A stretch of 64,000 nt of DNA from an uncultured Candidatus Binatia bacterium. Lineage in GTDB: Bacteria > Desulfobacterota > Binatia > Bin18. The notes under the pieces are model-generated. The model did not search any database, was not told the origin of the DNA, and was given only the letters and a program-made list of their open reading frames with translations. A program made the translations under genes and the position numbers. Numbering within the stretch: position 1 is the stretch's first letter; each line of letters begins with the position of its first letter. Shown here one piece after another: positions 2,749 through 15,879 of the stretch. The stretch is taken from assembly GCA_965214605.1 (NCBI GenBank), contig OZ243961.1, positions 1,504,001 to 1,568,000 on the forward strand. The letters are read 5' to 3'.

Positions 2749-3960
2749 GTGGGGGAGATGCGAGGAGCGAGTGCCCTGGAGCCCCCTGATGGGGGTAGGC
2801 AACTTCTGTGTCTGCTGCCGAGCCTGCACGACACCCTGATTGCGCGGCGGATCGCGATGCTCACCCGCAGCGGCTTCGCGGTGGAAGCGGCCGCGTTCGC
2901 CCGCCCGGTGGGCTTTGGCCGGGCCCCGGGGTGTCCGGTCGTGCGGTTGGGGGCGCTGCCGCCTCGGCAGTATCTCCGCCGCCTGCCCACGCTGCTGCGA
3001 GCGGCGGGCCAAGTGCGGGCGCTGATCCGCCGGCACGCGCTCGTGTACGCGTTCGGCCCGGACCTGGCGTGGCTGGCGACGCTGGCGGGGGCGGGGCTCG
3101 CGCGGCCGCTGGTGGTGGAGGTGGCGGACATCAAGGCGATCCAAGTCGAGCGGAGCTGGCGCGGGCGCGTGGTGCGGGCCCTCGACAAACGGGTGCTCAG
3201 CCGCAGCGGGTTGCTCGTCCTGACCGCGGCGGGCTACGAGACCTACTACCGGGAGGAGGTGGGCGTGGCGACGCCCACGCTCATCATCGAGAACAAGCTG
3301 GACCCGGCGTTCACCGCGTCGCTGCCGCCGCCCGCCCCGCCGGGGCGCGGGCAGGCGCAGGCCCGGCCCTGGCGGATCGGCTGGTTTGGCCGCCTGCGCG
3401 ACGCGTGGACGTTGCGCGTCCTGGATGAGGTAACCCGGCAGGCCCCCGGGCAGTTCACCGCCGTCCTCGCGGGGACGGTCTCGCCGTTCCTGCGCGAGTT
3501 CTCGGCGCGGGTGGCGGCCAATCCGCACCTGGCGTACCGGGGGGGCTACCGGTATCCGGACGACCTGCCGGCGCTCTACGGGGGGATCGACCTCACGATG
3601 GCGTGCCATACGCCCCGGCGGCCCGACCACTGGTCGCGGGGCAACCGGTATTATGAAGCCTGCCTGTTTCGCAAGCCGGTGCTGATCCGGGCGGGCCAGG
3701 CGCCTGCCCACGAGATCCGTCGCCATGGCATCGGCCTGATTATTGAGGCCGGGGGGGTCCGCGAGGCGGTGGCCACGCTGAGAGGGATTCGGGCGGCGGA
3801 TATGGCGCACTGGCAGGAGAATCTGGCCGCCCTGCCGCCTTCCGTCTACACCACCACGACGGAAGGCGCCGCGCTGCGGGCGGCGCTCGTCCGGCTGGTT
3901 GAGGCTTGGAGCCCCCCCCCCCCCCCCCCCCCCCCCGCGGCGACTTGCCCGCCTGGCTGA
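2749..3960 (+). CDS. Glycosyltransferase, ExoL-like (GT-B fold)
   Basis: RRIAML...G, VEVADI, ENKL, IGWFGRLR, YRGGYRYPDDLPALYG and NRYYEA motifs resemble succinoglycan glucosyltransferase ExoL. Very GC-rich; 25-nt poly-C near the 3' end. Confidence 0.75.
   Translation: MGEMRGASALEPPDGGRQLLCLLPSLHDTLIARRIAMLTRSGFAVEAAAFARPVGFGRAPGCPVVRLGALPPRQYLRRLPTLLRAAGQVRALIRRHALVYAFGPDLAWLATLAGAGLARPLVVEVADIKAIQVERSWRGRVVRALDKRVLSRSGLLVLTAAGYETYYREEVGVATPTLIIENKLDPAFTASLPPPAPPGRGQAQARPWRIGWFGRLRDAWTLRVLDEVTRQAPGQFTAVLAGTVSPFLREFSARVAANPHLAYRGGYRYPDDLPALYGGIDLTMACHTPRRPDHWSRGNRYYEACLFRKPVLIRAGQAPAHEIRRHGIGLIIEAGGVREAVATLRGIRAADMAHWQENLAALPPSVYTTTTEGAALRAALVRLVEAWSPPPPPPPPAATCPPG
3912..3936 (+). repeat. Homopolymer C25
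   Basis: Direct count of the C run; encodes a poly-Pro tail of the glycosyltransferase. Confidence 0.9.
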
Positions 3961-4530
3961 CTGAGCAGGCGCGGGCGGGGGGGCGGGCGCCCGCCGCCTC
4001 TCCCTTCTTCCTGGACGGCGCTGACAGCCGCCCCCCCCTCTTCCGGCGCCCGACAAGGGGGACAAGCCGGACAGCGCGCCCGGGAAGGGGCGTGAGGGGA
4101 GGGGACCGGGGCATCCGGTGGGGGCGTGGGCGTCCTGCGCTCACCAAGCGGCGTCGCTCCCTCGCCATGGGGTGCCGTCAGCCCCCCCGCCCGCAGCCCC
4201 GTTCTGGCGCGCTCTGTGGGCCCCGACGCAGGCCCGGTTCGCGGTCCGGGCGGATGCCCTGAAGCTCCTCCGGGCCGCCTGCACTGGGGGGGCGGCGCTG
4301 GTCAACGTGCGGCGCGCCCCGGGGGAGCCCCGCGCGCTCATCCGGGCGGTCCCTGAGCAGGCCGCGCCGCTCGCCGCCCTGTGGCACGCTTGGCACAGGG
4401 CGCATCTCTCGGCAAAGGTCCTTCCAGCGGGGAAGCGATATCAGCAGACGAACGAGGCCAGAGACAAGTTCCACTACTCCATGCTTAAGAGAGTAAAGAC
4501 ATGGCCAGTGTTGCAGAACGGGACATCTCT

Positions 4531-4808
4531 TTGCCGCCGGAGCCCGCCGGGCTGAGGGCTGTTGGGGGTGAGGGGGACGATCATGCTGTCCTGGGCCGTT
4601 CCAAGTGATCCCGACATCATCGGCTACCGGTTCCGGCTGAAAGGCTCGCGGGAGTCCGACTGGGGGTGGGTGGCGCGCAGTCAAGGCATGGTGGCGGCAC
4701 CGCACCCTGTTGCCTGGCCTGACCAACGGAAACCTCTACCAGGTGCAGTTGCGTGCGGGAAACGGTCGGGGCTGGGGACCGCTGAGCGAGACGGTGGCGA
4801 AAGCGTAG
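4531..4808 (+). pseudogene. Fibronectin type III domain remnant with two frameshifts
   Basis: Three frames join to LPPEPAGLRAVGGEG / TIMLSWAVPSDPDIIGYRFRLK... / LPGLTNGNLYQVQLRAGNGRGWGPLS, which matches the FN3 consensus (LSW, GY, GL..G..Y.V.VRA.N..G.GP.S). Confidence 0.75.
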
Positions 4809-5171
4809 GCACCGGAGTCGTGACGTGGCGGCGGTGGAGCGGTGAAGAACTCTCCCCCGTACTCTCGACCGACGGAGACAGGTAAGACCCTGTTGAAAAG
4901 TCACTGCAGGTTCGTGCAGTCTCTTGATGCCGTGAGTGCAGCAAGGCTGAAATCTGCTCTTTTTTCCTAGTCGCTGTGGTAGGATCTCAGTCGTACTGCC
5001 CGTCCCGAGCCTTACCCTTGTGCCTGGCGCTGGGAGTGACCTAATGGGGTCATACTGTCACGGAATTCCACCAGAGACTACCTAAGTGTCCGGAACCTGC
5101 TGGCCGAAGAAGGATTCTGAGCTTTGACCGGGGCGCTTATACGATGCAGTAACTCTCCTCCCCGCCACCGC

Positions 5172-5283
5172 TGGTCGAGACAAGCCTAGAGTTATCTGTT
5201 AATGTTACATCACAATCTCGAGATTGCGTATCGCAATAAAGAACGCATGGTCGAGACGAGCCTAGAGTTATCTGTTAATGTTA
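5172..5283 (+). repeat. 36-bp direct repeat pair (1 mismatch) separated by 40 bp
   Basis: TGGTCGAGAC(A/G)AGCCTAGAGTTATCTGTTAATGTTA at 5172-5207 and 5248-5283; the spacer contains the palindrome CAATCTCGAGATTG. Confidence 0.85.
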
Positions 5284-5357
5284 TCCTTTTTGACCATAGT
5301 TGTGGGTAAATACCTGCGACAATACCCGAAGTCCCACTCCCTACCGGGATAAGCATT

Positions 5358-8300
5358 ATGATGTTGGATGTCAACGGAAATACTTCTCCACCTGCCGGCT
5401 CATCATTTAGGAGACTTGTCCACGGATCCGCTTCCGTTATTCTCTCCTCCTGTATCGTGCTCACCGGCGCGTTGTTACTGGCGAACATCCTGCGCCTCTA
5501 TTCCCCGGGCCCGCCCATGGACGGTCTGCTTGGCGTTGTGTTCCTTACACTGGGCTTATCGCTGTTGCGTCATCGTGCGCCCTGGCCACGGGCGCCTCTA
5601 CTCTGTTTCACCGCCTTGGCTGCCCTTTACGGCGTGGGCGTCGCCATTGAGAGCAATTTCGAAGGCGTCCGCAACTTCGTCTCCATCCTGTACGCGGCCA
5701 TCATCTTCCTGTTCGGGTTTCGCAATGCGCCCGAATTGGCCCGGCACAGCGGCCTGATTGTGCTACTCGTGATCGTAGCGACGGTCATTACCATATTCCA
5801 GTGGCTACCCACGTTCCCCACCCTTAACCCGCACCTGATCTCGTCAATTTACGTCTATATACTCCTCACCATCGGATTAATCCTGGCTGCTCGCGGCTGG
5901 CAGGGGAGGGCCACCCTTGTGTTCTTGTTGGTCATTCCCACAGCTGCCGTCTTCGCCAACCGCTCGCTGGTGTTCGCAGCGTTGGGGAGCTATGCAGCGT
6001 ATTGGGCCGGGAAGGTCGTCCTGCGAGACCGACTGCGGGTCACAGGACTGGCTGTATGTCTCGGTTTCTTGATCTGTCTCCCGCTGCTCTTTGTGTTGTC
6101 GTCAGCGGTACCGCTCAATGAAGAAGAAGCCTTCCGAGAGCGCACTAGTCGACACCTTCTTCAAAATGGGCGTCAGATCTTGTGGAAGGTGGCGGTGGCC
6201 CACATTGCGGCAGCTCCCTGGTTTGGCCATGGGCCGGGTGCTGAGCTGAGTGCTGGGATGCATTCACCGCTGTCGCCAATCGACGGAGAGAAAGGGGCGG
6301 GATCGGTGTCCTGCTTGGAACAGGCTGGTGCTCCTGGCCTTGCTAGGGATTGTGACCTGTTGCTGGACATCAAGCACCTCTTGATTGGAACAGATGGGAA
6401 GGGAGAAATGCTGTGGAGCTGGAATATGCGGTCGCCGATTGCCTTCTGGAGGGGGATCGAGCTGGCCGGCACGCCGCCTCGTGTGACGGCCTTGCGCTTG
6501 CCTAACTCTGGCTTGAGCGGCCACCTCCCGGCACAGCTGGGGGAACTCGATGGGCTGCAAGAGCTCAACCTTGCGCGCAATCAGCTCACCGGTCCCATCC
6601 CGCCGGAGCTGGGCAAGTTGCCCAAGCTACGACGCCTGGCACTCCAAAGGAACCGGCTGACGGGGCCCATCCCGCCGGAGTTGGGCAAGCTCTCTGATCT
6701 TTCGGAATTATGGCTCAGCAACAACCGGCTGAATGGTGCCGTGCCGACAACCCTGACGCGGCTCGACCGCTTGTCTGGGCTGCGTTTAGCCAACAACGAA
6801 TTTGTCGCGCCCTTTCCAAGTCCGCTCTATGCCATAGCGGACCACGACCTCACGCAGGCCCTGTTCTGCCTGCCTATGCCCCAAACCCCGCCCGAACTGC
6901 TCGCGGACTGCACTGCCCTGCTGGCCATGCGGGACATTTTTGCTGGCGACGTTCCCCTCAACTGGACTCTCTCCTCACAAATCGGATTCTGGCAGGGCGT
7001 TGTAGTGGCCGGCACGCCGCCTCGTGTGACGGCCTTGCGCTTGCCTAACTCTGGCTTGAGCGGCCACCTCCCGGCACAGCTGGGGGAACTCGATGGGCTG
7101 CAAGAGCTCAACCTTGCGCACAATCAGCTCACCGGTCCCATCCCGCCGGAGCTGGGCAAGTTGCCCAAGCTACGACGCCTAGCACTCCAAAGGAACCGGC
7201 TCACCGGGCCCATCCCGCCGGAGTTGGGCAAGTTGCCCAAGCTACGACGCCTGGCACTCCAAAGGAACCGGCTGACGGGGCCCATCCCGCCGGAGTTGGG
7301 CAAGTTGCCCAAGCTACGACGCCTGGCACTCCAAAGGAACCGGCTGACGGGGCCCATCCCGCCGGAGTTGGGCAAGCTCTCTGATCTTTCGGAATTATGG
7401 CTCAGCAACTGAATGGTGCCGTGCCGACAACCCTGACGCGGCTCGACCGCTTGTCTGGGCTGCGTTTAGCCAACAACGAATTTGTCGCGCCCTTTCCAAG
7501 TCCGCTCTATGCCATAGCGGACCACGACCTCACGCAGGCCCTGTTCTGCCTGCCTATGCCCCAAACCCCGCCCGAACTGCTCGCGGACTGCACTGCCCTG
7601 CTGGCCATGCGGGACATTTTTGCTGGCGACGTTCCCCTCAACTGGACTCTCTCCTCACAAATCGGATTCTGGCAGGGCGTTGTAGTGGCCGGCACGCCGC
7701 CTCGTGTGACGGCCTTGCGCTTGCCTAACTCTGGCTTGAGCGGCCACCTCCCGGCACAGCTGGGGGAACTCGATGGGCTGCAAGAGCTCAACCTTGCGCG
7801 CAATCAGCTCACCGGTCCCATCCCGCCGGAGCTGGGCAAGTTGCCCAAGCTACGACGCCTGGCACTCCAAAGGAACCGGCTGACGGGGCCCATCCCGCCG
7901 GAGTTGGGCAAGCTCTCTGATCTTTCGGAATTATGGCTCAGCAACAACCGGCTGAATGGTGCCGTGCCGACAACCCTGACGCGGCTCGACCGCTTGTCTG
8001 GGCTGCGTTTAGCCAACAACGAATTTGTCGCGCCCTTTCCAAGTCCGCTCTATGCCATAGCGGACCACGACCTCACGCAGGCCCTGTTCTGCCTGCCTAT
8101 GCCCCAAACCCCGCCCGAACTGCTCGCGGACTGCACTGCCCTGCTGGCCATGCGGGACATTTTTGCTGGCGACGTTCCCCTCAACTGGACTCTCTCCTCA
8201 CAAATCGGATTCTGGCAGGGCGTTGTAGTGGCCGGCACGCCGCCTCGTGTGACGGCCTTGCGCTTGCCTAACTCTGGCTTGAGCGGCCACCTCCCGGCAC

Positions 8301-11300
8301 AGCTGGGGGAACTCGATGGGCTGCAAGAGCTCAACCTTGCGCACAATCAGCTCACCGGTCCCATCCCGCCGGAGCTGAAAGAGCTGCGCAACCTAGTATT
8401 GACCGGAAACCGCCTGACGGAGCTGACATCGCATCCCGTCGCCAACCACGACGTGAGCAGTCAGTTTCGCTGCTCGTCGCTGCCCAGCGCTCTGGTTCGG
8501 GATTGCATCGCGCTGTTGGAGGTGCGGGATGTCTTGGCTGGGGGTGCGGTACTGAACTGGGATGACTCGACCCCGATTCAGCTTTGGCAGGGCGTCGTGG
8601 TGGACAAGATCCGCCAACGCGTGGTCGCACTGGACTTGTCTGGCAAAAGGCTGCGCGGTCGGCTTCCGAAGGAACTTGGAGCATTGGATCAGCTTCAGTC
8701 GCTGCATCTCGATCACAACCTGCTCAGCGGTGCCATCCCCCCTGAACTGGGACGATTAGCCCACTTACAGGAGTTGGTACTGGACGCCAACATGTTGGTA
8801 GGCCCCATTCCGGTGGAGATCACACAACTTGCGAATTTGACGGTATTGTCGCTGCGCGACAATGGGTTGACCGCCGTTCCGTCGAGGCTGGAGGAACTTG
8901 GTAAACTTTCACGCCTGAGCCTGGGCGGCAACGACTTTTACGATCCTCTCCCGCCAGCCCTTGTAGAGATCAACCGCGATGTTGGCGACGATCTACTGTG
9001 TTCCATGATAGCTCGTCAGGATACCTTCAGAGGCCTGCGGCAAGACTGCCGCGCTCTGCTGGACGCACGAGACATCTTGACCGGAAGTGGCGAGCTCAAC
9101 TGGAACGACACCCTACCCATCGGTCTGTGGCGCGGCGTCCGGCTTGCGCATGCTTCAGAACCGCGTGTCGTCGCCCTGCGTTTGCCGGGGAGTGGGCTGA
9201 CCGGCGAGATTCCTCCCCAACTAGGCCACCTGACTAGGCTGGTTTCGCTTCGACTAAACGGGAATCATCTTACCGGCACTATCCCGGCGAAGTTAAGCTC
9301 GCTCAGAGAGCTGGTGGAACTCCGGCTTGAGAATAACCGCCTGAGCATGAGCAGTCCAATCCTCGATCTGAACCTCTTGAATAACTCGCTGCTTGTCAGT
9401 CTCGGCGGCAACCGCCTTGACGCCGTGAAAGCGTCAAGCGCTTCCAGAGACTTGGCACTGGTGACGGCTACAGCTAGCGACGGGTCCAAGCACGTTGCAC
9501 AGCCGGTGCCGGATATCATCGGCAAGGAGCTCTTCTGCCGCCCGTCGGCTTCTCCCACGGAGCTACTCGCCGATTGCGAGGCGCTTCTGGCGGCCCGCAC
9601 CGCATTGATCGGCAAGGGGGCAGCGCCGCTTGTGAACTGGAGCGACTCGATACCTATCGGTTTTTGGCGAGGAGTGACACTTAGCGCAGAGACGCCGCCG
9701 CGGGTGGTTGCGCTAGATCTGTCGCAGATGCGGCTTCACGGGCGTATCCCTCCCGAACTTGGCGTACTGGAGCGACTCCACTCCCTGCGGTTACATCGCA
9801 ACCGACTCGCTGGGCCGATTCCAGCCGAACTGGAGGCCCTGGATAACTTGCAAGAGCTGATGCTCGGTATGAACGCCTTGACCGGCTCTATCCCGCCAAC
9901 ATTGGGGAAGCTCTACCAACTCAAGGTGTTACATCTACGCAGGAATCGACTCACTGGTTCTATCCCGGAGGAGCTTGGCGAACTCAAGAACCTGCAAACG
10001 CTCGTGCTGGACGGCAACGCTTTGACGGGCTCCGTTCCGGTGACACTCGCGAGTTTGCCCAACCTAGAAGAACTGTGGCTGAAGGGAAACCGCTTGAGCG
10101 GCGAGATTCCGGCGGAACTCGCGGAGCCCGGCAGACTGGCCGTGCTGGATCTTGGGGACGATGTGTCTAGCGTCGGTTATGATGCTGGCGGTCTCCGGTT
10201 CTGCGAGGCGGCTCGTGGCAAAGACAACGGTTTGGGGCAAGATTGCACCGTGTTGCTCGACGTGCGAGAGAGGCTCATGGGTACGGCTAGGTTGAATTGG
10301 GATATCACGACGCCGATCAATGATTGGCAAGGCGTCGAGGTATCTGGCGTGCCCGCACGCGTGACGGCGCTGAACTTGGCCCGTACAGGGATAAACGGGA
10401 ATATTCCTCCCGAACTGCACAAATTGGACCGGCTCATCGAACTGCGCCTCAGCGACAACGGGCTCACCGGTCCCATCCCGCCCGAACTCGGCAAGCTGGT
10501 GCATCTGCAAGTGCTGGCACTCAATAATAACGCCCTGACCGGCTGGCTGCCTAGAGACTTGGCCAAAATACCCGGCCTGCGCGAGGTGCGGCTCGGCGGC
10601 AATGCGACAGAACACAAGCGGTTGTGCCAGCCCTCGTTGCTGGACAGTCCAGGCCTGTTGGACGACTGCACCGTGCTGCTTGCCGTCCGCGATCGGCTGA
10701 GGGGTGACGCGTTCCTCAATTGGAACAAGAGTACGCCCATAGAAGCCTGGAAGGGTGTGACGGTGGGCGACGGTGGGCCGGAGCGCGTGGTAGCGGTCGA
10801 GTTGCCTAGGGCTGGGCTGAACGGCCGGTTGCCGTCGGAATTGCTGGCGCTGAAACGACTCGTGTCCTTGCGCCTGGAGGACAACCGGCTGACCGGTTTC
10901 ATCCCGGCTGGTCTGGACCATCTTAGGGACCTAGTGAGATTGCGGCTGGACGGCAACGATTTCTCCGGTTGCGTGCCGTCTGCTCCGGCGAGGATGCAGG
11001 GCCGTGATCTGGAGCTGGATATGCTATGCGGCCCGTCCGCATGGGCCAAACCGAAGCTCTACGACGACATGGCCGTGCTGATAAGCGTGCAGGACGCTCT
11101 AGCCGGTAATGCCGAGCTGAACTGGGACTTCACCCGTCCTGTGACCTCTTGGCAGGGCGTAACCGTGGGAGGCGAGCCGCCTCGGGTAGAGCAAATCATG
11201 CTGTCACGGATGGGCCTTGACGGACACATCCCACCGCAACTGGAGGCACTAGATCGACTCGTGGCCCTGCACCTCGACGGCAATCGGCTCACCGGCACCG

Positions 11301-11899
11301 TGCCGTTAGAACTCGGCAACCTAGAGCATTTGAGGCTCCTATGGATCAATCACAATCAACTCAGCGGAAGCCTGCCGTCGGAGTTGGAGAGATTCGCCGG
11401 ACTTACATCCATAAGGCTCCATGAAAACAACTTTACTGGCTGTGTCTCACATCCGTTGCACGGGCTGCGTAGGGAGTTAGCCGCCTCATCTGGCCTCCCC
11501 GAGTGCGTCGTGGCGGAGAGTGATACACAAGGTTTCAACCTCAAACGCACGTTAATCGAGGGAGCCCATCAGTGGTCCTTATGGCGGCCCGCCATCACGA
11601 CGAGCAAGACGGCTCACAATCTCGTTTTGCAAGTAGGGTTGCAAACCGGGATCATCGGCATAGCCGTGCTGCTCCTGTTGTTCGTATCCCTGATCTTCGG
11701 CCTAGTGGCGCCACAGGGTGAGGGAATTGGACCTACGCGACGGTTTGCATTGGCGTGTATCGTCACGATCATCCTTCACAACGCCTTCGAGGTCTTCTTG
11801 TTGCAGAATGCGCTCGTCCTAATGACCATAACCTGGCTGCTGATCGGTCTCTCCACGGGCGTGGTCCACGCCGGCGAAACATGCAAAGGAAGCCAATGA
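5358..11899 (+). CDS. O-antigen ligase/polymerase (Wzy_C-like) membrane protein with a very large inserted LRR array; frameshifted at ~7409 (ORFs 5358-7412 and 7397-11899)
   Basis: N-terminal multi-TM region ends in GRQILW...PWFGHGPG; C-terminus has AHNLVLQVGLQTGIIG plus TM helices; between them are about ten Cys-capped 24-aa LRR modules. A 7-bp deletion relative to sister repeats explains the split; restored length about 2182 aa. Confidence 0.8.
6468..8376 (+). repeat. Near-identical tandem 543-bp intragenic repeats with nested 72-bp LRR units
   Basis: Anchor GGCACGCCGCCTCGTGTG recurs at 6468, 7011, 7691 and 8234 (spacings 543, 680 = 543+2x72-7, 543). Confidence 0.92.
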
Positions 11900-11927: not shown

Positions 11928-13301
11928 TCATGACCATCGCATTCCAGCATGGCGGACCAGCTTGAGAGCCGAGGTCCACAAAAACGCCACGTCGGCGGGC
12001 CGGAGCAGCAGAGTGGCAGACATGGACAATTGGGTGGTTCTCTGGAACGTAATCCACAGGATGAAGCTGCGGCAGAGAAGGCTGCCGGTCAAGGCCCATG
12101 CAGCGCCGTGCAACCCCCACGTCGGATAAAGGACAAAGAAAAGCACGCCGTTGGCAGTGAGGCCGAGCCACATGGCATAGGAGAAGACCTGGGGAAGGTT
12201 AACGCCCCGGAAGTAGGTGGCGAAGATCTCGGCGCCAGCATAGGCCAGTACACCGATGGACATGATCCAGGTCAAATGGACGACCGGAGCAAAGGCTTCC
12301 GAGAGAAGCAGGGGCACTAGGTGGGTGCTGACGGCGAACCAGACCAGCAGCAGCCCTCCCATGGTTGACCAGGTCACGCGGGCGCAGAAGGCGGCAAGTT
12401 CGGGCCTCCCAGAAGCACTGTCGGCCGTCCGCGGCAGCAGATAGGCTGAGACTGCAGTCTGAATGAAGTTACTCTTCGTGATCAGAGTATTGCTTGTGGC
12501 GAAGAGCCCGATGTCGGCGCGATCAGCCACATTGCCCAGCAGCAGACTCCCCACTCGGGATTCGAAGGACTGGCCAACTCTCGCCGGATACTCTTTGAGG
12601 CCGTATAGAAGCACCTCTCGCAACCCCTCCCAGCTCGGCAGCTCCAAGGTCAGACCGCAATGCTGCCTTAAGTCCAGAACACAAGCCCCGACCATTGCCA
12701 AATGCCCCAATGCCAACGCCAGGACTGCGCCGCTGACGCCTAGGTTCAGTCCCCACACCAAAACTACGACAGCAGCCGCTCCCACTCCCGCACGGAGGAA
12801 GGAGAATAACGCCAGTCGGCCGAATCGCCGCAGCCCCTCTAGCTGCAGGATGATGGCGGAGACAAGGGAAGATATGGGGATCAGGAGCATAGCCATGTAG
12901 AAGGAACTCGTGCTGGCGTTGCGGAAAAAATCAAGGTCGCTATGAATCAGCGGTAGTGCTGCAATGATGGCGACCGTACTCCCAATCAGACAAAAGACGA
13001 CCGCAATCGACACACCCCGCGAGATGCTGATCCGCTTCGTGATAATGAGGTATTGCGCACCGTGGCCAGAGCCCAAGGTGACTAGGGCCCCGGCGAGGCT
13101 TCCAAATAAAACGCAGACCGTATAGGCACCGCGGCCTTCGGGCAGAAGCGTATAGGCAAGAAGACTTTGGGTTACTACGTTTAGGGTCAGGACAATTCCC
13201 CGGGTGATCAGCAGGACTGTTACCTCCTGTCGGCCGGTGGAGGCTGGTCCCGATTGGGTGGGAGGCGTAATAAGTCTCTCCTTACAAAGCCGATTGCTCA
13301 C
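11928..13301 (-). CDS. Wzx-type oligosaccharide flippase (PST/MOP family)
   Basis: Many hydrophobic helices; LAYTLLPEGRG, GVSGAVLA and GLHGAAWA motifs typical of polysaccharide flippases; start uncertain. Confidence 0.85.
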   Translation of the reverse strand: MSNRLCKERLITPPTQSGPASTGRQEVTVLLITRGIVLTLNVVTQSLLAYTLLPEGRGAYTVCVLFGSLAGALVTLGSGHGAQYLIITKRISISRGVSIAVVFCLIGSTVAIIAALPLIHSDLDFFRNASTSSFYMAMLLIPISSLVSAIILQLEGLRRFGRLALFSFLRAGVGAAAVVVLVWGLNLGVSGAVLALALGHLAMVGACVLDLRQHCGLTLELPSWEGLREVLLYGLKEYPARVGQSFESRVGSLLLGNVADRADIGLFATSNTLITKSNFIQTAVSAYLLPRTADSASGRPELAAFCARVTWSTMGGLLLVWFAVSTHLVPLLLSEAFAPVVHLTWIMSIGVLAYAGAEIFATYFRGVNLPQVFSYAMWLGLTANGVLFFVLYPTWGLHGAAWALTGSLLCRSFILWITFQRTTQLSMSATLLLRPADVAFLWTSALKLVRHAGMRWS

Positions 13302-13770
13302 TTACATCGAGATGCCGAACGCCTATATTCTATGCGCAGGGGCCTGATGCGCGCAGGTTTTATAAGCGACTCTACGCCTCAGCAGGGGTGAGCGGCTAGT
13401 TGGTGACGATCTGCGGGGATATCGGCTCCTTATAATAAGCTTTTTTGTCCCCGTGTCAAATATTCTCCACGTACACCACCGCCATACTAACCGTCGTTAT
13501 CTCCACCCGTCGGCCGGTTTGTAGCTTTTGAAAGGCTGCAGGAACCCCATGTTGATATCACGAATACCGGGGTATATGAGGTAAGACTTCGAGAGGTTGG
13601 AAGAGGCTATAGAGGTAAGCTCAGCGTTCGTTGGAGGCTGGTCACCGACGACGCTTTTCAATGTTGCGTTGGTTAACACAACCCTGGAATTGGAAGGCTC
13701 GTGCGGCTACCTCTTTATCAAAACTGTCCGAAAGTCTTGCTCATCTCATAAGGAGAAAGGCTGGAAACCC

Positions 13771-15879
13771 ATGAAGAAACGCTGGAAAACGACGATGTTT
13801 CCCCCCCTTGCCGTTCTGAGATTCTTTCTCAACCTCGGTCTTGCGGCACTGCTGCCGGTGACGGCAAGCTGTGCGCATGAGGTTGATCCTCCGCCGAACG
13901 TGCTCGTCATCTTCGTCGACGACCTCGGCTACAACGACGTGAGCTTCAACGGCGCGACCGAGATCAAGACGCCGAACATCGACCAGCTGGCGAAAGAAGG
14001 CGTGATCTTCGCCAACGGCTACGTGGCCGCTCCGACCTGCGGCCCGTCGCGTGCCGGCCTGATGACCGGGCGCTACCCGGCACGGTTCGGCATGGAGTTG
14101 AATCTGGCCTACGCGCCTTTCGACCCTGACCACGGTCTGCCAGTGGAGGAAACGACCTTTGCCACGTACCTCCAGGACTCCGGCTACCGCACCGGCCTCG
14201 TCGGCAAATGGCAGCTCGGCGCCGCGCCGCCGTTCCACCCGCTCAACCGCGGCTTCGATTCCTTCTTCGGCTTCCTCGCCGGTGAACATGACTACTTCCG
14301 CATCGACGTCACGCGCTCTCCACTCCATGTTGGCTGGCTCCCGCTCAGCGACAACCGGGGCGCGGTCGGGTTCACCGGCTACCTCACCGATGCGCTGACC
14401 GAGCGCGCGGTGGACTTCATCCGCGAGGAGTCGGAGGCGCCCTTTTTCCTGTATCTGGCCTACAATGCCCCGCATACGCCCCTGCAGGCGCCGCCGGAAC
14501 TCGTCAAGAAGTATGCTCACGTCGCGGACGAGAGGCGGCGCGTGTACCTGACGATGGTCGATTCGCTGGACTACAACGTGGGCCAGGTGCTGGACGCACT
14601 GCGGGAAACGGGCCAGCGGGACGATACCCTCGTGTTCTTCCTCAGCGACAACGGTGGCGTGTATCCCCGGCCCAGTTGGGAGAACCAGACTTGGGCGGAC
14701 AACTCTCCGTTTCGCGGCGGCAAGACCAGCTTCCACGAAGGCGGCATTCGCGTGCCGTTCGTCGCCTCCTGGCCGGCCCGTTGGCCGCGCGGCGTGACCT
14801 TCGAGCCGATGGTCATCAGCCTGGATATCGCGGCCACCGCGCTCGCCCTGGCCGGCGTCGCCGACCCGGCGCAGCCTCTCGATGGCGTCAACCTCGACCC
14901 CTTCGTTCGCGGAGAGGCCACCGGCCCTCCGCACGACGCCCTCTTCTGGCGCCGCGTGTTCCCCCGGGACTGGTCCAAGACCGTCTACATCGTGCGCGCC
15001 GGCGACATGAAACTCATCAAGGCCACCCGCGATGGGGACGCCGCGCTCTTCGATCTGCGCACCGACCCCGGTGAGACGCGCGACCGGGCCGGCGAGAAGA
15101 CGGATGCCGTGGCGCGGCTGGCCGCGCTCTGGAACGAATGGAACCGGGAGAACCTGGGATACCGCTTTACCGACGAGACCACGTATAAAAATGTTCTCCA
15201 CGAGACAAGAAAGAGGTTGGCCGCGAGGTCGATGGTAATGCCCCCGTTCCAAATAGGATCCAAAAAGGAAATGACCGATATGCAGGTGACGCCCTCGTGT
15301 TCCAACGGAGTCGTGGTGCCGGAGCCGGACCGCAATCCCGGCCTGGTCGCCGACTGCGCGGTCCTGATGGAAGTGAAGGACATGTTCGTCGAGGAAGTCC
15401 ACACCTGGAGGTTTACCCGGCCGCTCCAGACCTGGGAGGGCGTCACCATTGGCGGTCCACCGCTTCGGGTCCGCGCGTTGTCGCTCGCTCAGCGCGGTCT
15501 CCCTGGCCGCCTCCCCTCGAAGCTTGCGGAACTGGACAGGCTTGAAGAGTTGAGGCTCAGCGGCAACCGTCTGGCCGGCGGGATTCCGCCGGAGCTGGGC
15601 CGTCTGACCGGGCTGCGGCTCCTCGCCCTTAGCGATAATCTCCTGACCGGCGAGCTGCCGCCGGAGCTGGGCGCGTTGTCGGACCTGGAGGAGTTGCGGC
15701 TCCGAGGCAATCGGCTGACGGGGGCGATTCCGCCGGAGTGGGGCGGGCTGCCCCGACTGCGGCTCCTTAGGTTGGCGGACAACGGCCTTGTCGGCTGCAT
15801 TCCGCCGGCTTTGCGGGAGGTCGAAAGTCACGACCTGCAAAGGCTGGGCCTTGTGTCTTGCATTCCGGCTACGCCATAG
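13771..15879 (+). CDS. Arylsulfatase-like sulfatase with signal/lipobox-like N-terminus and C-terminal LRR module
   Basis: PNVLVIFVDDLG, CGPSRAGLMTGRY (CxPxR formylglycine motif), GKW, PH, SDNG, EGGIRVP; then CSNGVV..PGLVADC cap and LRRs; hydrophobic stretch ending VTASC; ATG 13771 follows AGGAG/AAGG. Confidence 0.9.
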   Translation: MKKRWKTTMFPPLAVLRFFLNLGLAALLPVTASCAHEVDPPPNVLVIFVDDLGYNDVSFNGATEIKTPNIDQLAKEGVIFANGYVAAPTCGPSRAGLMTGRYPARFGMELNLAYAPFDPDHGLPVEETTFATYLQDSGYRTGLVGKWQLGAAPPFHPLNRGFDSFFGFLAGEHDYFRIDVTRSPLHVGWLPLSDNRGAVGFTGYLTDALTERAVDFIREESEAPFFLYLAYNAPHTPLQAPPELVKKYAHVADERRRVYLTMVDSLDYNVGQVLDALRETGQRDDTLVFFLSDNGGVYPRPSWENQTWADNSPFRGGKTSFHEGGIRVPFVASWPARWPRGVTFEPMVISLDIAATALALAGVADPAQPLDGVNLDPFVRGEATGPPHDALFWRRVFPRDWSKTVYIVRAGDMKLIKATRDGDAALFDLRTDPGETRDRAGEKTDAVARLAALWNEWNRENLGYRFTDETTYKNVLHETRKRLAARSMVMPPFQIGSKKEMTDMQVTPSCSNGVVVPEPDRNPGLVADCAVLMEVKDMFVEEVHTWRFTRPLQTWEGVTIGGPPLRVRALSLAQRGLPGRLPSKLAELDRLEELRLSGNRLAGGIPPELGRLTGLRLLALSDNLLTGELPPELGALSDLEELRLRGNRLTGAIPPEWGGLPRLRLLRLADNGLVGCIPPALREVESHDLQRLGLVSCIPATP

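Follow-up and report, generated by a model that had tools for sequence, protein, structure and literature searches.

Gene organization of the locus

The gene analyzed here lies in a 64-kb stretch of DNA (hereafter, the window). It is found as two ORFs in a neighborhood with the following features:

2749..3960, forward strand: GT4-type glycosyltransferase (Pfam Glyco_trans_4_4, E 3.3e-10)
5172-5207 and 5248-5283, no strand assigned: two 36-nt direct repeats, 97% alike, in front of the ligase-like gene (75-186 bp from its start codon)
5358-7412, forward strand: ORF1 (684 aa), encoding TM helices 1-9, the N-terminal half of the Wzy_C loop, LRR module 1 and the part of module 2 that precedes the break
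7408..7409, forward strand: break point, where seven bases of both paralogous copies are missing and the frame shifts
7397-11899, forward strand: ORF2 (1500 aa), encoding what is left of module 2, all of modules 3-10 and the C-terminal half of the Wzy_C domain
11928..13301, reverse strand: Wzx/MOP-type flippase-like membrane protein (457 aa), convergent with the ligase-like gene, assigned through its homologues
13597..15879, forward strand: sulfatase with a C-terminal cap+LRR module (module at ~15325-15825)

ORF1 and ORF2 are in different frames of the forward strand and constitute one gene that is split by a 7-bp gap inside a near-identical repeat; apart from this single break, the frames are open across 6.5 kb. 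The DNA at the break reads GGCTCAGCAAC up to position 7408 and continues after the gap with TGAATGG, and both paralogous copies, at ~6720 and ~7943, read GGCTCAGCAACAACCGGCTGAATGG. The read-through product of the two ORFs has a length of ~2,182 aa and consists, in this order, of nine TM helices, the first half of the Wzy_C loop, ten cap+LRR modules, the AHN motif and three TM helices.

The break is more likely to be an error of the consensus than a genuine pseudogenization event. In all four public sequencing runs compared (three studies), the sole contig spanning position 7408 carries the seven bases, so the frameshift is possibly an assembly error. The comparison used 251 bases around the break only, and the run contigs at this position are collapsed ones of 367-573 bp that represent three near-identical copies, such that a deletion in one copy is compatible with them. 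Alternatively, whatever the intact family does elsewhere, the gene in this particular genome could be truly pseudogenized, within an accessory island that is decaying. The frameshift is present in the assembly, the region immediately upstream of the gene (3961-5357) contains no large ORF, the GT4 gene includes a run of 25 C close to its 3' end (3912-3936), no ortholog was found in the 40 relatives searched, and the homologue in locus L010 is likewise split into two ORFs. This possibility nevertheless appears doubtful considering that the seven bases are present in the runs despite the retention, elsewhere within the same stretch, of short variant contigs of 31-80 bp, and that a single break interrupts otherwise open frames.

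Two halves of a Wzy_C domain

The elements of the Wzy_C domain are located at both ends of the gene:

5961..5963, forward strand: codon of R202 (NRSL), invariant in 23/23 rows of the family alignment and a candidate for the first Und-PP-binding Arg
6171..6239, forward strand: GRQILW...PWFGHGPG motif, the last canonical Wzy_C element ahead of the insert
11612..11899, forward strand: AHNLVLQVGLQTGIIG motif and the last three TM helices (helices assigned by homology to the model of relative P0003)

The original prediction described a Wzy_C/WaaL signature split over about 5.4 kb. This layout is borne out by the positions of R272 (codon 6171-6173), PWFGHGPG (6216-6239) and the His of the AHN motif (codon 11615-11617). 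Residues 191-293 of ORF1 match positions 3-107 of the Pfam Wzy_C profile (PF04932; 26.4 bits, E 6.7e-6), and residues 1401-1426 of ORF2 match positions 124-149 (15.1 bits, E 0.02). These matches are colinear and would roughly add up to ~41.5 bits, with each of them under the curated gathering cut-off of 31.7 bits. The three intact relatives that were scanned also score below this cut-off (P0003, 19.5 bits; P0004, 23.6 bits; P0005, 29.7 bits), and the best E-values among the ORFs and scanned relatives range from 6.7e-6 to 6.6e-7.

Profile-to-profile comparison yields a much clearer signal. A family profile with the insert excised, built from 22 relatives and the gene studied here, aligns with 20 bona fide Wzy_C ORFs across the junction at an hhalign probability of 97.7% (E 1.5e-12, 138 columns). 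Compared separately, the N and C halves reach 91.3% and 94.1%, respectively, in colinear template columns, and controls against a Wzx alignment give 0.0-0.2%. The N-part profile compared with one bona fide Wzy_C protein aligns in 31 columns only (probability 1.6%), so that an alignment of 20 such proteins was needed. A language-model search with the N part of the relative P0006 is consistent with this assignment, with Wzy_C clusters accounting for 28 of the 30 matches (score 0.96). No fold match to WaaL was obtained in structure-based and PDB searches: the N-part profile has no matches in the PDB sequences at E<=10; the matches listed by Foldseek for the full P0003 model are LRR targets only; and the AF2 model of the N part of this gene alone is poor (pLDDT 62.5, pTM 0.46), with no Foldseek matches at E<=0.001 and only meaningless ones at E>0.1. 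The expectation that the halves would match Wzy_C thus holds with respect to colinearity and profile comparison, but not with respect to the Pfam score. Altogether, these comparisons indicate that the two parts are halves of a single Wzy_C/WaaL-like domain. Another weak Wzy_C match in the same genome, L006, is an unrelated membrane protein.

The predicted catalytic residues are strictly conserved. The N parts of the 23 aligned proteins are just 33-50% identical, yet R202, R272, the PW-G-G motif (W288, G290 and G292 within GRQILW...PWFGHGPG) and the His (23/23 rows) are invariant; R272 and the His align with the respective R and H of bona fide Wzy_C. We take the H-N-x9-G-xx-G motif of this protein to fit the WaaL signature. 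In O-antigen ligases, two Arg bind the Und-PP phosphates and the His activates the acceptor (PMC10920833, PMC3643930). The distance between R202 and R272 is 70 residues; the corresponding Arg are 74 residues apart in the solved ligase (R191/R265/H313; PMC10920833), and E. coli WaaL has a spacing of 73 (R215/R288/H338; PMC3643930).

The AF2 model of the one-module relative P0003 contains nine TM helices, the LRR-bearing loop and three TM helices, with pLDDT of ~80-95 for the TM and LRR parts and below 50 for the catalytic loop segments 276-323 and 500-548. The short loops contain eight K+R on the inner side and none on the outer side, which places the LRR loop outside. In agreement with the motif positions, the model topology and this charge distribution, the original prediction correctly put the insert in the extracytoplasmic loop, past the second conserved Arg and ahead of the His. 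The protein is therefore predicted to have 12 TM helices and a periplasmic catalytic loop, as in a WaaL-type ligase. Since the bacteria are diderm and the protein would reside in the inner membrane, the LRRs are unlikely to be displayed to the outside.

Judging from this model, the protein shares with WaaL (CAZy GT121; PDB 7TPG, cited in PMC10920833) the 12-TM layout and the large periplasmic loop past TM9, along with the two conserved Arg ~70 residues apart and the conserved His in an AHN-type motif. The differences are the Pfam score under the cut-off, the accessory nature of the gene, which is unconserved in relatives, and the segment between the second Arg and the His, which comprises ~35 residues in the bona fide Wzy_C ORF L001. 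In the present family, the insert at this position ranges from ~230 aa (one module) to ~2,800 aa (in a member of 3250 aa).

The LRR array

The insert consists of an array of modules, one of which contains a tandem repetition:

6312..11506, forward strand: ten-module array
7127..7376, forward strand: tandem of 72-bp units (3.5 copies, 97% matches), one unit corresponding to one LRR; these are the extra repeats of module 2

Each module starts with a two-Cys cap (C-x10-13-L-x-DC-xx-LL...LNW...W-x-GV) that is followed by 24-residue LRRs of the plant-specific type. In accord with the predicted number of about ten modules between the halves, ten cap motifs are identifiable; DCxxLL is present in nine and DMxxLI in the tenth, and LNW....W.GV follows in every case. 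A loose pattern, which under-counts, detects at least 39 LRR units, two to six per module; neighboring units are spaced by 24 residues in 26 of 38 cases, and there are 19 strict matches to L..L.L..N.L[ST]G.[IVL]P..L. Modules 2-4 have stretches in common that are 100% identical over 300 nt or more.

The repeats belong to the plant-specific LRR class, the consensus of which is LxxLxLxxNxL(t/s)GxIPxxLGxLxx, with 23-25 residues (PMC2946307). The predicted fold of the module also resembles the SERK/BAK1 ectodomain: among the Foldseek matches listed for the P0003 model, all 47 are plant LRR ectodomains, and SERK/BAK1 chains match the module at 31-36% identity over ~140 columns with TMt of 0.64-0.69 (e.g., 6g3w_C: E 4.3e-7, 33% identity, 139 columns, TMt 0.65). 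The cap does not match Pfam LRRNT_2 (PF08263), either in the full ORFs at E<=0.1 or as an isolated 71-aa piece at E<=10, so the likeness of the cap to LRRNT_2 is one of pattern and position alone. Of the plant-like cap and repeat originally proposed, the repeat is hence substantiated by both consensus and predicted fold, but the cap lacks an HMM match. The best structural counterparts among plant proteins, namely the ectodomains of SERK1/2, BAK1, BIR and PGIP, share with the module the 24-residue repeat and the organization as a cap plus a handful of repeats. They differ from it in the cap, which here is C-x10-13-DC; furthermore, the modules described here are arranged head-to-tail inside the loop of a polytopic bacterial enzyme, and there is no kinase.

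The LRR part, and only this part, also resembles bacterial LRR proteins that act as effectors or adhesins, with matches to the Xop, LIC_11051 and internalin-type NCBIfam families at 14.6 to 166 bits (cut-offs 450-1600 bits). XopAC, XopAE, XopL, LIC_11051 and the internalins are soluble proteins that are secreted or injected, unlike the integral membrane protein analyzed here. Membership in the Xanthomonas XopAC/XopAE/XopL effectors was rejected given scores of 17.5-166 bits, in the LRR region only, against cut-offs of 450-600 bits.

Recurrence of the architecture in diverse bacteria

The search for the same split architecture elsewhere, proposed along with the original prediction, identified LRR arrays flanked by both halves in 23 of 154 database proteins. 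These relatives are intact, 633-3250 aa long, contain 1-12 caps by motif count and come from several bacterial groups, in MAGs titled Gammaproteobacteria, Nitrospirales and Thalassobaculaceae. We found no description of such a protein in the literature, in line with the earlier remark that no characterized protein of this architecture was known. The LRR-array-bearing design recurs in several bacterial groups and across phyla and is apparently still undescribed.

These relatives also bear on the concern that a repeat-driven misassembly brought the two halves together, given that the gene contains repeats with 100% identity over 300 nt or more. The N half, the LRR array and the C half make up single intact ORFs in the 23 other proteins, which argues that the architecture is not an artifact of assembly; the same arrangement is present at nine loci of MAG records, most of them titled chromosome-level; and lengths are stable over many independent contigs, with 12 of the 15 listed members of one cluster having 1335 aa. 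The misassembly reading is close to refuted and retains hardly any probability.

No ortholog was found among the 40 relatives searched, including seven of the same genus, whereas a canonical Wzy_C gene, which is also present in this genome, is common to 19 of 20 relatives (20 of 21 genomes including its own); the LRR-ligase gene is therefore accessory. A search with the N part among proteins of 161-585 aa (shared 5-residue words, 8000 candidates scored) revealed no sister group without the insert and returned only a 340-aa fragment. A full-library HMMER search with the whole P0003 sequence gave 84,231 matches at E<=0.001 and 10,979 at E<=1e-30; LRR proteins dominate among these, and the numbers are not a count of the family.

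In addition, there is a second group of LRR-bearing Wzy_C proteins (P0026, P0029 and the fragments P0034 and P0069). Like the family described above, they begin with a TM bundle, continue with a long array of this type of LRR and end with Wzy_C motifs and terminal TM helices. In contrast to the family, the array precedes the R..LW...P.FGHG.G motif, so that the Arg and His motifs stay adjacent, and the N part is unrelated to that of the family by phmmer. Positions 75-149 of the Wzy_C profile are matched in one piece in this group, and two of the four members are above the cut-off (35.5 and 32.8 bits).

Genomic neighborhood

The LRR-ligase genes are recurrently associated with genes of glycan pathways. 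Within 10 kb, a Wzx-like gene is encoded in five of the nine loci and a GT4 gene in four of the nine. GT4 homologues with 42-47% identity adjoin the LRR-ligase in L009, L010, L011 and L014, and in L009 and L010 the stop codon of the GT4 gene overlaps the ligase start by 4 nt. In the window, the GC content of the GT4 gene is 73.7%, compared with 58.2% for the window as a whole. The adjacent flippase-like gene, with a promoter-like site at 13459-13432 (promoter scan), encodes a protein that itself has no Pfam match. Its homologues, detected by tblastn at 41-46% identity, provide the assignment: five of the six members of the alignment match Polysacc_synt (best E 1.2e-13) and one of six matches MurJ. 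A PDB sequence search with the Wzx-like profile gave no matches at E<=10. A canonical Wzy_C gene is located nearby in both L009 and L010, in the former together with a GT2 gene.

Outside the ligase gene, the module occurs in this genome only in the sulfatase gene, two genes away. The likely start of the sulfatase is the ATG at 13771, which is followed by a signal-peptide-like stretch. No counterpart of the sulfatase part was detected near family members in the other loci (tblastn, 1e-5). Given its fusion to an unrelated exported enzyme, the module may be a portable binding unit.

Proposed function

We propose that the product of this gene is an inner-membrane, His-bearing WaaL-type transferase of the Wzy_C superfamily, an enzyme class that works at the periplasmic face of the membrane, where it transfers a glycan carried by undecaprenyl-pyrophosphate to an acceptor. 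Here, the neighboring GT4 enzyme would assemble the glycan and the neighboring Wzx-like protein would flip it. The periplasmic catalytic loop, between R272 and the predicted acceptor-activating His, would hold the ten SERK-ectodomain-like modules as a built-in binding platform that keeps an acceptor or partner macromolecule beside the active site. The numbers of modules and repeats could shift quickly via unequal recombination between near-identical units. That the protein is catalytically active, what type of acceptor it uses and that its LRRs serve in binding are our inferences, and we give the reading as a whole, an active Und-PP-glycan transferase with a periplasmic LRR platform, a probability of roughly one half.

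A natural point of comparison is the group of protein O-oligosaccharyltransferases of the PglL/PilO type, which have the same Wzy_C core and R/R/H triad (PMC3643930). Their acceptors for Und-PP-glycans are proteins, and a protein-binding LRR platform would suit such an activity. According to PMC3643930, the PglL_A motif is found in PglL and not in WaaL. PglL_A (PF15864) has no match in the ORFs at E<=0.1 or in the relatives at E<=10; the HMMER filters may hide very weak matches. Furthermore, unlike the PglL/PilO genes, the ligase gene has no adjacent pilin, and an LRR insert in this group was not found in the literature.

Alternatively, the protein could be a Wzy-type polymerase instead of a ligase. 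The LRR array would then handle the growing chain as a built-in ruler or a co-polymerase-like element, and the role of ligase would fall to the canonical Wzy_C genes near other loci. The adjacent Wzx-like flippase gene, the separate canonical Wzy_C genes in the clusters of L009 and L010, and the wide variation of the array length, from 1 to 12 caps, are all compatible with such a role. LRRs, however, are chiefly protein binders, and the acceptor-activating position is occupied by the invariant His in all 23 rows. His is the ligase state of this position, which is Asp or Glu in the polymerase families of the clan (PMC10920833), and a polymerase is accordingly an unlikely interpretation.

The original prediction left a choice between a ligase or polymerase with a recognition array and a ligase scaffold serving as a mere membrane anchor. 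Without settling the choice, the invariance of the catalytic residues and the glycan-pathway neighbors favor the enzyme. Under the second option, the Wzy_C bundle would be catalytically dead and function as a two-ended membrane anchor for a periplasmic array that binds or inhibits incoming proteins or is involved in sensing, in each case independently of any glycan transfer. The sub-threshold Wzy_C scores, the low confidence of the catalytic loop segments in the model, the fusion of the same module to the sulfatase and the rapid expansion of the LRRs all speak for an anchor. Loss of activity would be hard to reconcile with the invariance of R202, R272, PW-G-G and the His in such divergent sequences, with the association of Wzx, GT4 and GT2 genes with this gene across phyla, including the 4-nt overlap with GT4, and with the second group, in which the array is located elsewhere in the same loop and above-threshold Wzy_C is retained in two of the four members. 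An anchor devoid of activity hence appears improbable.

If the enzymatic reading is valid, these proteins would be of interest beyond the respective loci. O-antigen ligases and their kin determine what is displayed on the Gram-negative surface, and how they choose acceptors is poorly understood. Natural WaaL-type enzymes whose catalytic loop is interrupted by a modular, fast-evolving and putatively protein-binding array would offer a way into the question of how acceptors are selected. They would also provide a bacterial setting for a plant-type LRR ectodomain and, possibly, a scaffold for directing glycan transfer to chosen targets. In addition, the segment from the second Arg to the His tolerates inserts of roughly 230 to roughly 2,800 residues, which is useful structural information on the GT-C1 fold.

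Finally, a more far-reaching scenario, which we consider quite improbable, is that these proteins are receptor-glycosyltransferases in which the periplasmic string of SERK-like modules binds a protein or peptide ligand and thereby gates or selects WaaL-type glycosylation. By analogy with plant receptor kinases, ligand binding would feed into an output, here a GT-C ligase. The ligand would come from the cell's own envelope, from a host or from a neighbor, and the Ala/Ser/Thr-rich linkers of the array could possibly act as acceptors in cis. This scenario further implies that the cassette of Wzx, GT4 and LRR-ligase genes moves between phyla and that LRR arrays entered the loop at least twice, at two points. 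LRR proteins are counted among the 'eukaryotic-like proteins' of symbionts, which may be a lead toward a host-associated lifestyle.

Organization of the ligase gene and its LRR array

The WaaL-like (Wzy_C) ligase gene is read as two ORFs, with the LRR array lying between the two sequence motifs of the catalytic loop:

5358-7412, + strand: ORF1 (ORF call, 684 aa)
6171-6239, + strand: GRQILW...PWFGHGPG motif
7397-11899, + strand: ORF2 (ORF call, 1500 aa), in a frame different from that of ORF1
11615, + strand: His of AHNLVLQVGLQTGIIG, about 5.4 kb from the GRQILW...PWFGHGPG motif

The original prediction described 5358-11899 correctly in its particulars, namely the motif gap of this size, the ten modules of cap and LRRs, and the 24-aa repeats. 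Each of the ten modules between the PWFGHGPG and His motifs consists of a cap, C-x10-13-L-x-DC-xx-LL ... LNW ... W-x-GV (DM replaces DC in the tenth cap), followed by 24-residue repeats. At least 39 repeats are recognized by a loose LRR pattern, with a spacing of exactly 24 in 26 of 38 successive pairs, and the strict plant-specific pattern fits 19. The proposed affinity of the cap with LRRNT_2 was not recovered: this Pfam domain was detected neither in the ORFs (E<=0.1) nor in the isolated cap (E<=10). Module 2 contains a 72-bp tandem repeat (3.5 copies, 97% matches), and modules 2-4 have at least 300 nt in common at 100% identity, a pattern indicative of unequal recombination or gene conversion in the very recent past. 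Closely 5' of the ligase start, there are two 36-nt direct repeats (5172-5207 and 5248-5283; 97% alike, 76 bp apart), at which a consensus scan found no promoter-like site.

The modules resemble plant LRR ectodomains. The repeats of the window gene fit the plant-specific consensus given in an excerpt of PMC2946307, and Foldseek with the AF2 model of P0003, a one-module relative, listed 47 matches, every one of them a plant LRR ectodomain. The top matches, SERK1/2 and BAK1 (E 4e-7 to 2e-6, 31-36% identity, TMt 0.64-0.69), extend over about 140 columns, so that one module corresponds to a whole SERK-size ectodomain. XopAC, XopAE, XopL, a Leptospira adhesin family and internalins are matched by NCBIfam in the LRR region alone and far below the cut-off.

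The break between ORF1 and ORF2

The junction falls within a leucine-rich repeat, where the window has GGCTCAGCAAC|TGAATGG and both paralogous copies of that repeat have GGCTCAGCAACAACCGGCTGAATGG; hence, 7 bases are absent after 7408. With XX placed at the break, the read-through product is about 2,182 aa long. The window gene is present, whole or in part, in twelve public runs, five of which contain at least half of the sampled words, and four runs from three studies were compared over 7310-7560. The break is probably, at about two to one, an assembly or consensus error. Alternatively, there may be a real deletion in one of the three near-identical copies, within a worn island, as the contigs over the break (367-573 bp) stand for all three copies and can lose a minority variant; the lack of a large ORF in 3961-5357, the C run within the GT4 gene and the similarly split homologue in locus L010 are compatible with such decay. 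Against a deletion, the sole contig over 7408 in each of the four runs has CAACCGG inserted behind this position at a depth equal to the total depth, and none of the contigs in these runs has the deleted form, though variant contigs of 31-80 bp persist elsewhere in 7310-7560. The L010 homologue, from a Gammaproteobacteria MAG, consists of overlapping ORFs split inside the LRR-array part:

9824-11170: first ORF, 448 aa
11143-15648: second ORF, 1501 aa

Relationship of the two halves to Wzy_C

Pfam Wzy_C (PF04932) matches residues 191-293 of ORF1 (profile 3-107, 26.4 bits, E 6.7e-6) and residues 1401-1426 of ORF2 (profile 124-149, 15.1 bits, E 0.02). These matches run colinearly, and both fall short of the curated 31.7 bits, as do all single-protein scores of the window ORFs and the scanned relatives. 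For profile comparison, a bona fide Wzy_C set was assembled from above-cut-off ORFs (44-92 bits), which are present in 20 of 21 genomes (the window's own and 20 relatives); 20 of 30 ORFs, of 380-560 aa, were kept. The insert-excised family profile (22 relatives and the window; P0044, a protein without the N end, was left out) aligns with this set across the junction (hhalign 97.7%, E 1.5e-12, 138 columns), an alignment that starts at the GR..LW motif, takes in AHN and reaches the last TM helices. The predicted division of a Wzy_C domain by an LRR insert is thus borne out by both the colinear matches and the junction-spanning profile. As a control for an effect of the artificial junction, the halves were aligned separately: the N part gave 91.3% (E 9.7e-7, template columns 303-331) and the C part 94.1% (E 1.3e-7, columns 346-445), versus 0.0-0.2% for both against an unrelated Wzx-like membrane family. 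The N-part profile reached 1.6% over 31 columns with one single Wzy_C protein and had no match among PDB sequences. In a language-model look-up with residues 1-330 of the relative P0006, 28 of 30 matches were O-antigen-ligase clusters (score 0.96).

A recurrent family

Relatives of 633 and 808 aa, as well as seven in the range of 1310-2369 aa, were identified by searches with the N part, and a full-library search with P0003 supplied more. N and C parts flank an LRR array in 23 of 154 other proteins collected (633-3250 aa, 1-12 caps by motif count); two more contain only the C part and are fragment-like. In 90% clusters, full lengths recur over many contigs: 1335 aa in 12 of 15 listed members, 808 aa in 6 of 10 and 1735 aa in 5 of 14, the latter accompanied by members of 1711 and 1687 aa with one and two 24-residue repeats fewer. 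Misassembly through the repeats is all but ruled out by these 23 proteins and by the recurrence of their lengths across contigs.

A scan of species genomes yielded 11 loci in MAG records; the split architecture, for which the original prediction proposed a search of metagenomes, recurs in other genomes. By record title, these are Gammaproteobacteria (4), Candidatus Azophilus (2), Nitrospirales, Thalassobaculaceae, uncultured Pseudomonadales, uncultured bacterium and delta proteobacterium; the matches in the last two are partial and weak, and the good loci number nine (L008-L016). Tandem paralogues, differing greatly in array length within a locus, are present in L008 (two), L011 (three) and L014 (two):

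L008, 2627-9733 and 9923-12349: two LRR-ligase genes
L011, ~4002-9929, 10001-11869 and 12018-14354: three LRR-ligase genes
L014: second LRR-ligase copy on the opposite strand

The N parts of the relatives P0004 (808 aa) and P0007 (2356 aa) are nearly identical, and a contig of 205,208 bases carries P0007 together with an 808-aa member of the 90% cluster of P0004. A search of 40 relatives, 7 of them of the same genus, gave no match to the N part, and the LRR module is confined in the window's genome to the window gene (10 matches) and a sulfatase two genes away (1 match); therefore, the window gene is part of an accessory island.

Catalytic residues and membrane topology

Every row of the 23-row alignment retains R46, D55, R71, R202, R272, W288, G290, G292 and the His, with N parts of the relatives 33-50% identical to that of the window. 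In the alignment with the bona fide set, R272 and the His fall on that set's R and H, which places the insert after the second Arg and before the His. An excerpt of PMC3643930 gives an R/R/H triad for E. coli WaaL (R215, R288, H338) and Neisseria PglL (R224, R298, H349); the window family has this triad with an R-R spacing of 70. The comparison with WaaL held for these residues. For the fold, the listed Foldseek matches of the P0003 model were all LRR structures, and a model made from just the N part of the window protein was too poor for use (pLDDT 62.5). In the solved O-antigen ligase described in an excerpt of PMC10920833, the triad is R191, R265 and H313, with the Arg assigned to the Und-PP phosphates and the His to acceptor activation. 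Polymerase families of the clan have Asp or Glu where ligases have His, according to the same excerpt; the invariant His favors a ligase.

The P0003 model (mean pLDDT 75.7) places the LRR-module loop after nine TM helices and ahead of three more; pLDDT is about 80-95 in the TM and LRR parts and below 50 in loop segments 276-323 and 500-548. Its short loops contain 8 K+R on the assumed inner side versus 0 on the outer side, which puts the modeled LRR loop in the periplasm, in agreement with the Cys pair of each cap and a like module on the signal peptide-bearing sulfatase. As part of an inner-membrane loop in a diderm, the array is probably not exposed outside the cell.

Genomic neighborhood and proposed function

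The genes flanking the ligase include:

2749-3960, + strand: GT4 glycosyltransferase (Pfam)
11928-13301, - strand: Wzx-type flippase-like protein (Pfam matches of homologues)

The ORF at 11928-13301 itself has no Pfam match. Its homologues in other loci are 41-46% identical (tblastn), and in a six-row alignment of the window protein with five of these, Polysacc_synt is matched in 5 of 6 (best E 1.2e-13) and MurJ in 1 of 6; by this sequence similarity, it is a Wzx-type flippase-like protein. A flippase homologue is located within 10 kb of the LRR-ligase in five of the nine good loci (L009, L010, L011, L012, L014), and a GT4 homologue in four (L009, L010, L011, L014); neither was found within 10 kb in L008, L013, L015 and L016. 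The GT4 stop and the ligase start overlap by 4 nt in L009 and L010, which also contain:

L009, 945-2243, - strand: canonical Wzy_C gene (77.3 bits)
L009, 5865-6839: GT2 gene
L010, 17559-18968, + strand: canonical Wzy_C gene (58.7 bits)

The set of genes around the LRR-ligase is that of a Wzx-dependent glycan cluster. We consider it about an even bet (roughly 0.5) that the protein is an active WaaL-type transferase with a built-in LRR binding platform. Under this scheme, a glycan would be made by GT4 and other enzymes and flipped by the Wzx-like protein; the transferase would then move it from Und-PP to a periplasmic acceptor, with the LRR array binding that acceptor or a partner. The Wzy_C bundle could instead be a catalytically dead anchor for the LRRs, which is argued against by the invariant catalytic residues and the conserved glycan-gene neighbors. 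Of the readings initially offered, ligase or polymerase versus anchor, the enzyme, as a ligase, is thus favored over the anchor. The claim that no protein of this architecture has been characterized agrees with a full-text literature search, in which no description of an O-antigen-ligase-type protein with LRRs was apparent from titles and abstract openings.

Near its 3' end, the GT4 gene contains a 25-C run (3912-3936), read as a Pro run, and its GC content is 73.7% (GC3 88.9%) versus 58.2% for the window; possible explanations are a tract prone to slippage, a gene of foreign origin or a sequencing artefact. A short ORF at 4562-4885 and the adjacent frame look by eye like frameshift-broken pieces of a fibronectin-III-like domain; the ORF has no Pfam match at E<=1. 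In the sulfatase (13597-15879; E 4.5e-67 for Pfam Sulfatase), a start resembling a signal peptide lies at 13771, and the C terminus carries a cap with four LRRs of the ligase type, the only other module copy in the genome.

LRR arrays in a second Wzy_C lineage

Wzy_C was also detected, as a one-piece match (profile 75-149), in four of six other top LRR matches scanned (P0026, P0029, P0034 and P0069), two of them above the cut-off (35.5 and 32.8 bits). P0034 and P0069 are N-terminally incomplete; in P0026 and P0029, an N-terminal TM bundle is followed by the LRR array, R..LLW...P.FGHG.G, about 20 residues, VHNLYL or PHNLYL, and the terminal helices. The array thus precedes the Arg motif, whereas it follows this motif in the window family, and the N part has no detectable relation to that of the window family. 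Accordingly, two Wzy_C lineages carry LRR arrays at different positions within the same loop. In the window's own genome, another Wzy_C protein (632-aa ORF; loci L003/L005 at G000:C1:2960701-2961627, minus strand) also has a split Wzy_C match, with about 170 residues between profile positions 65 and 75.
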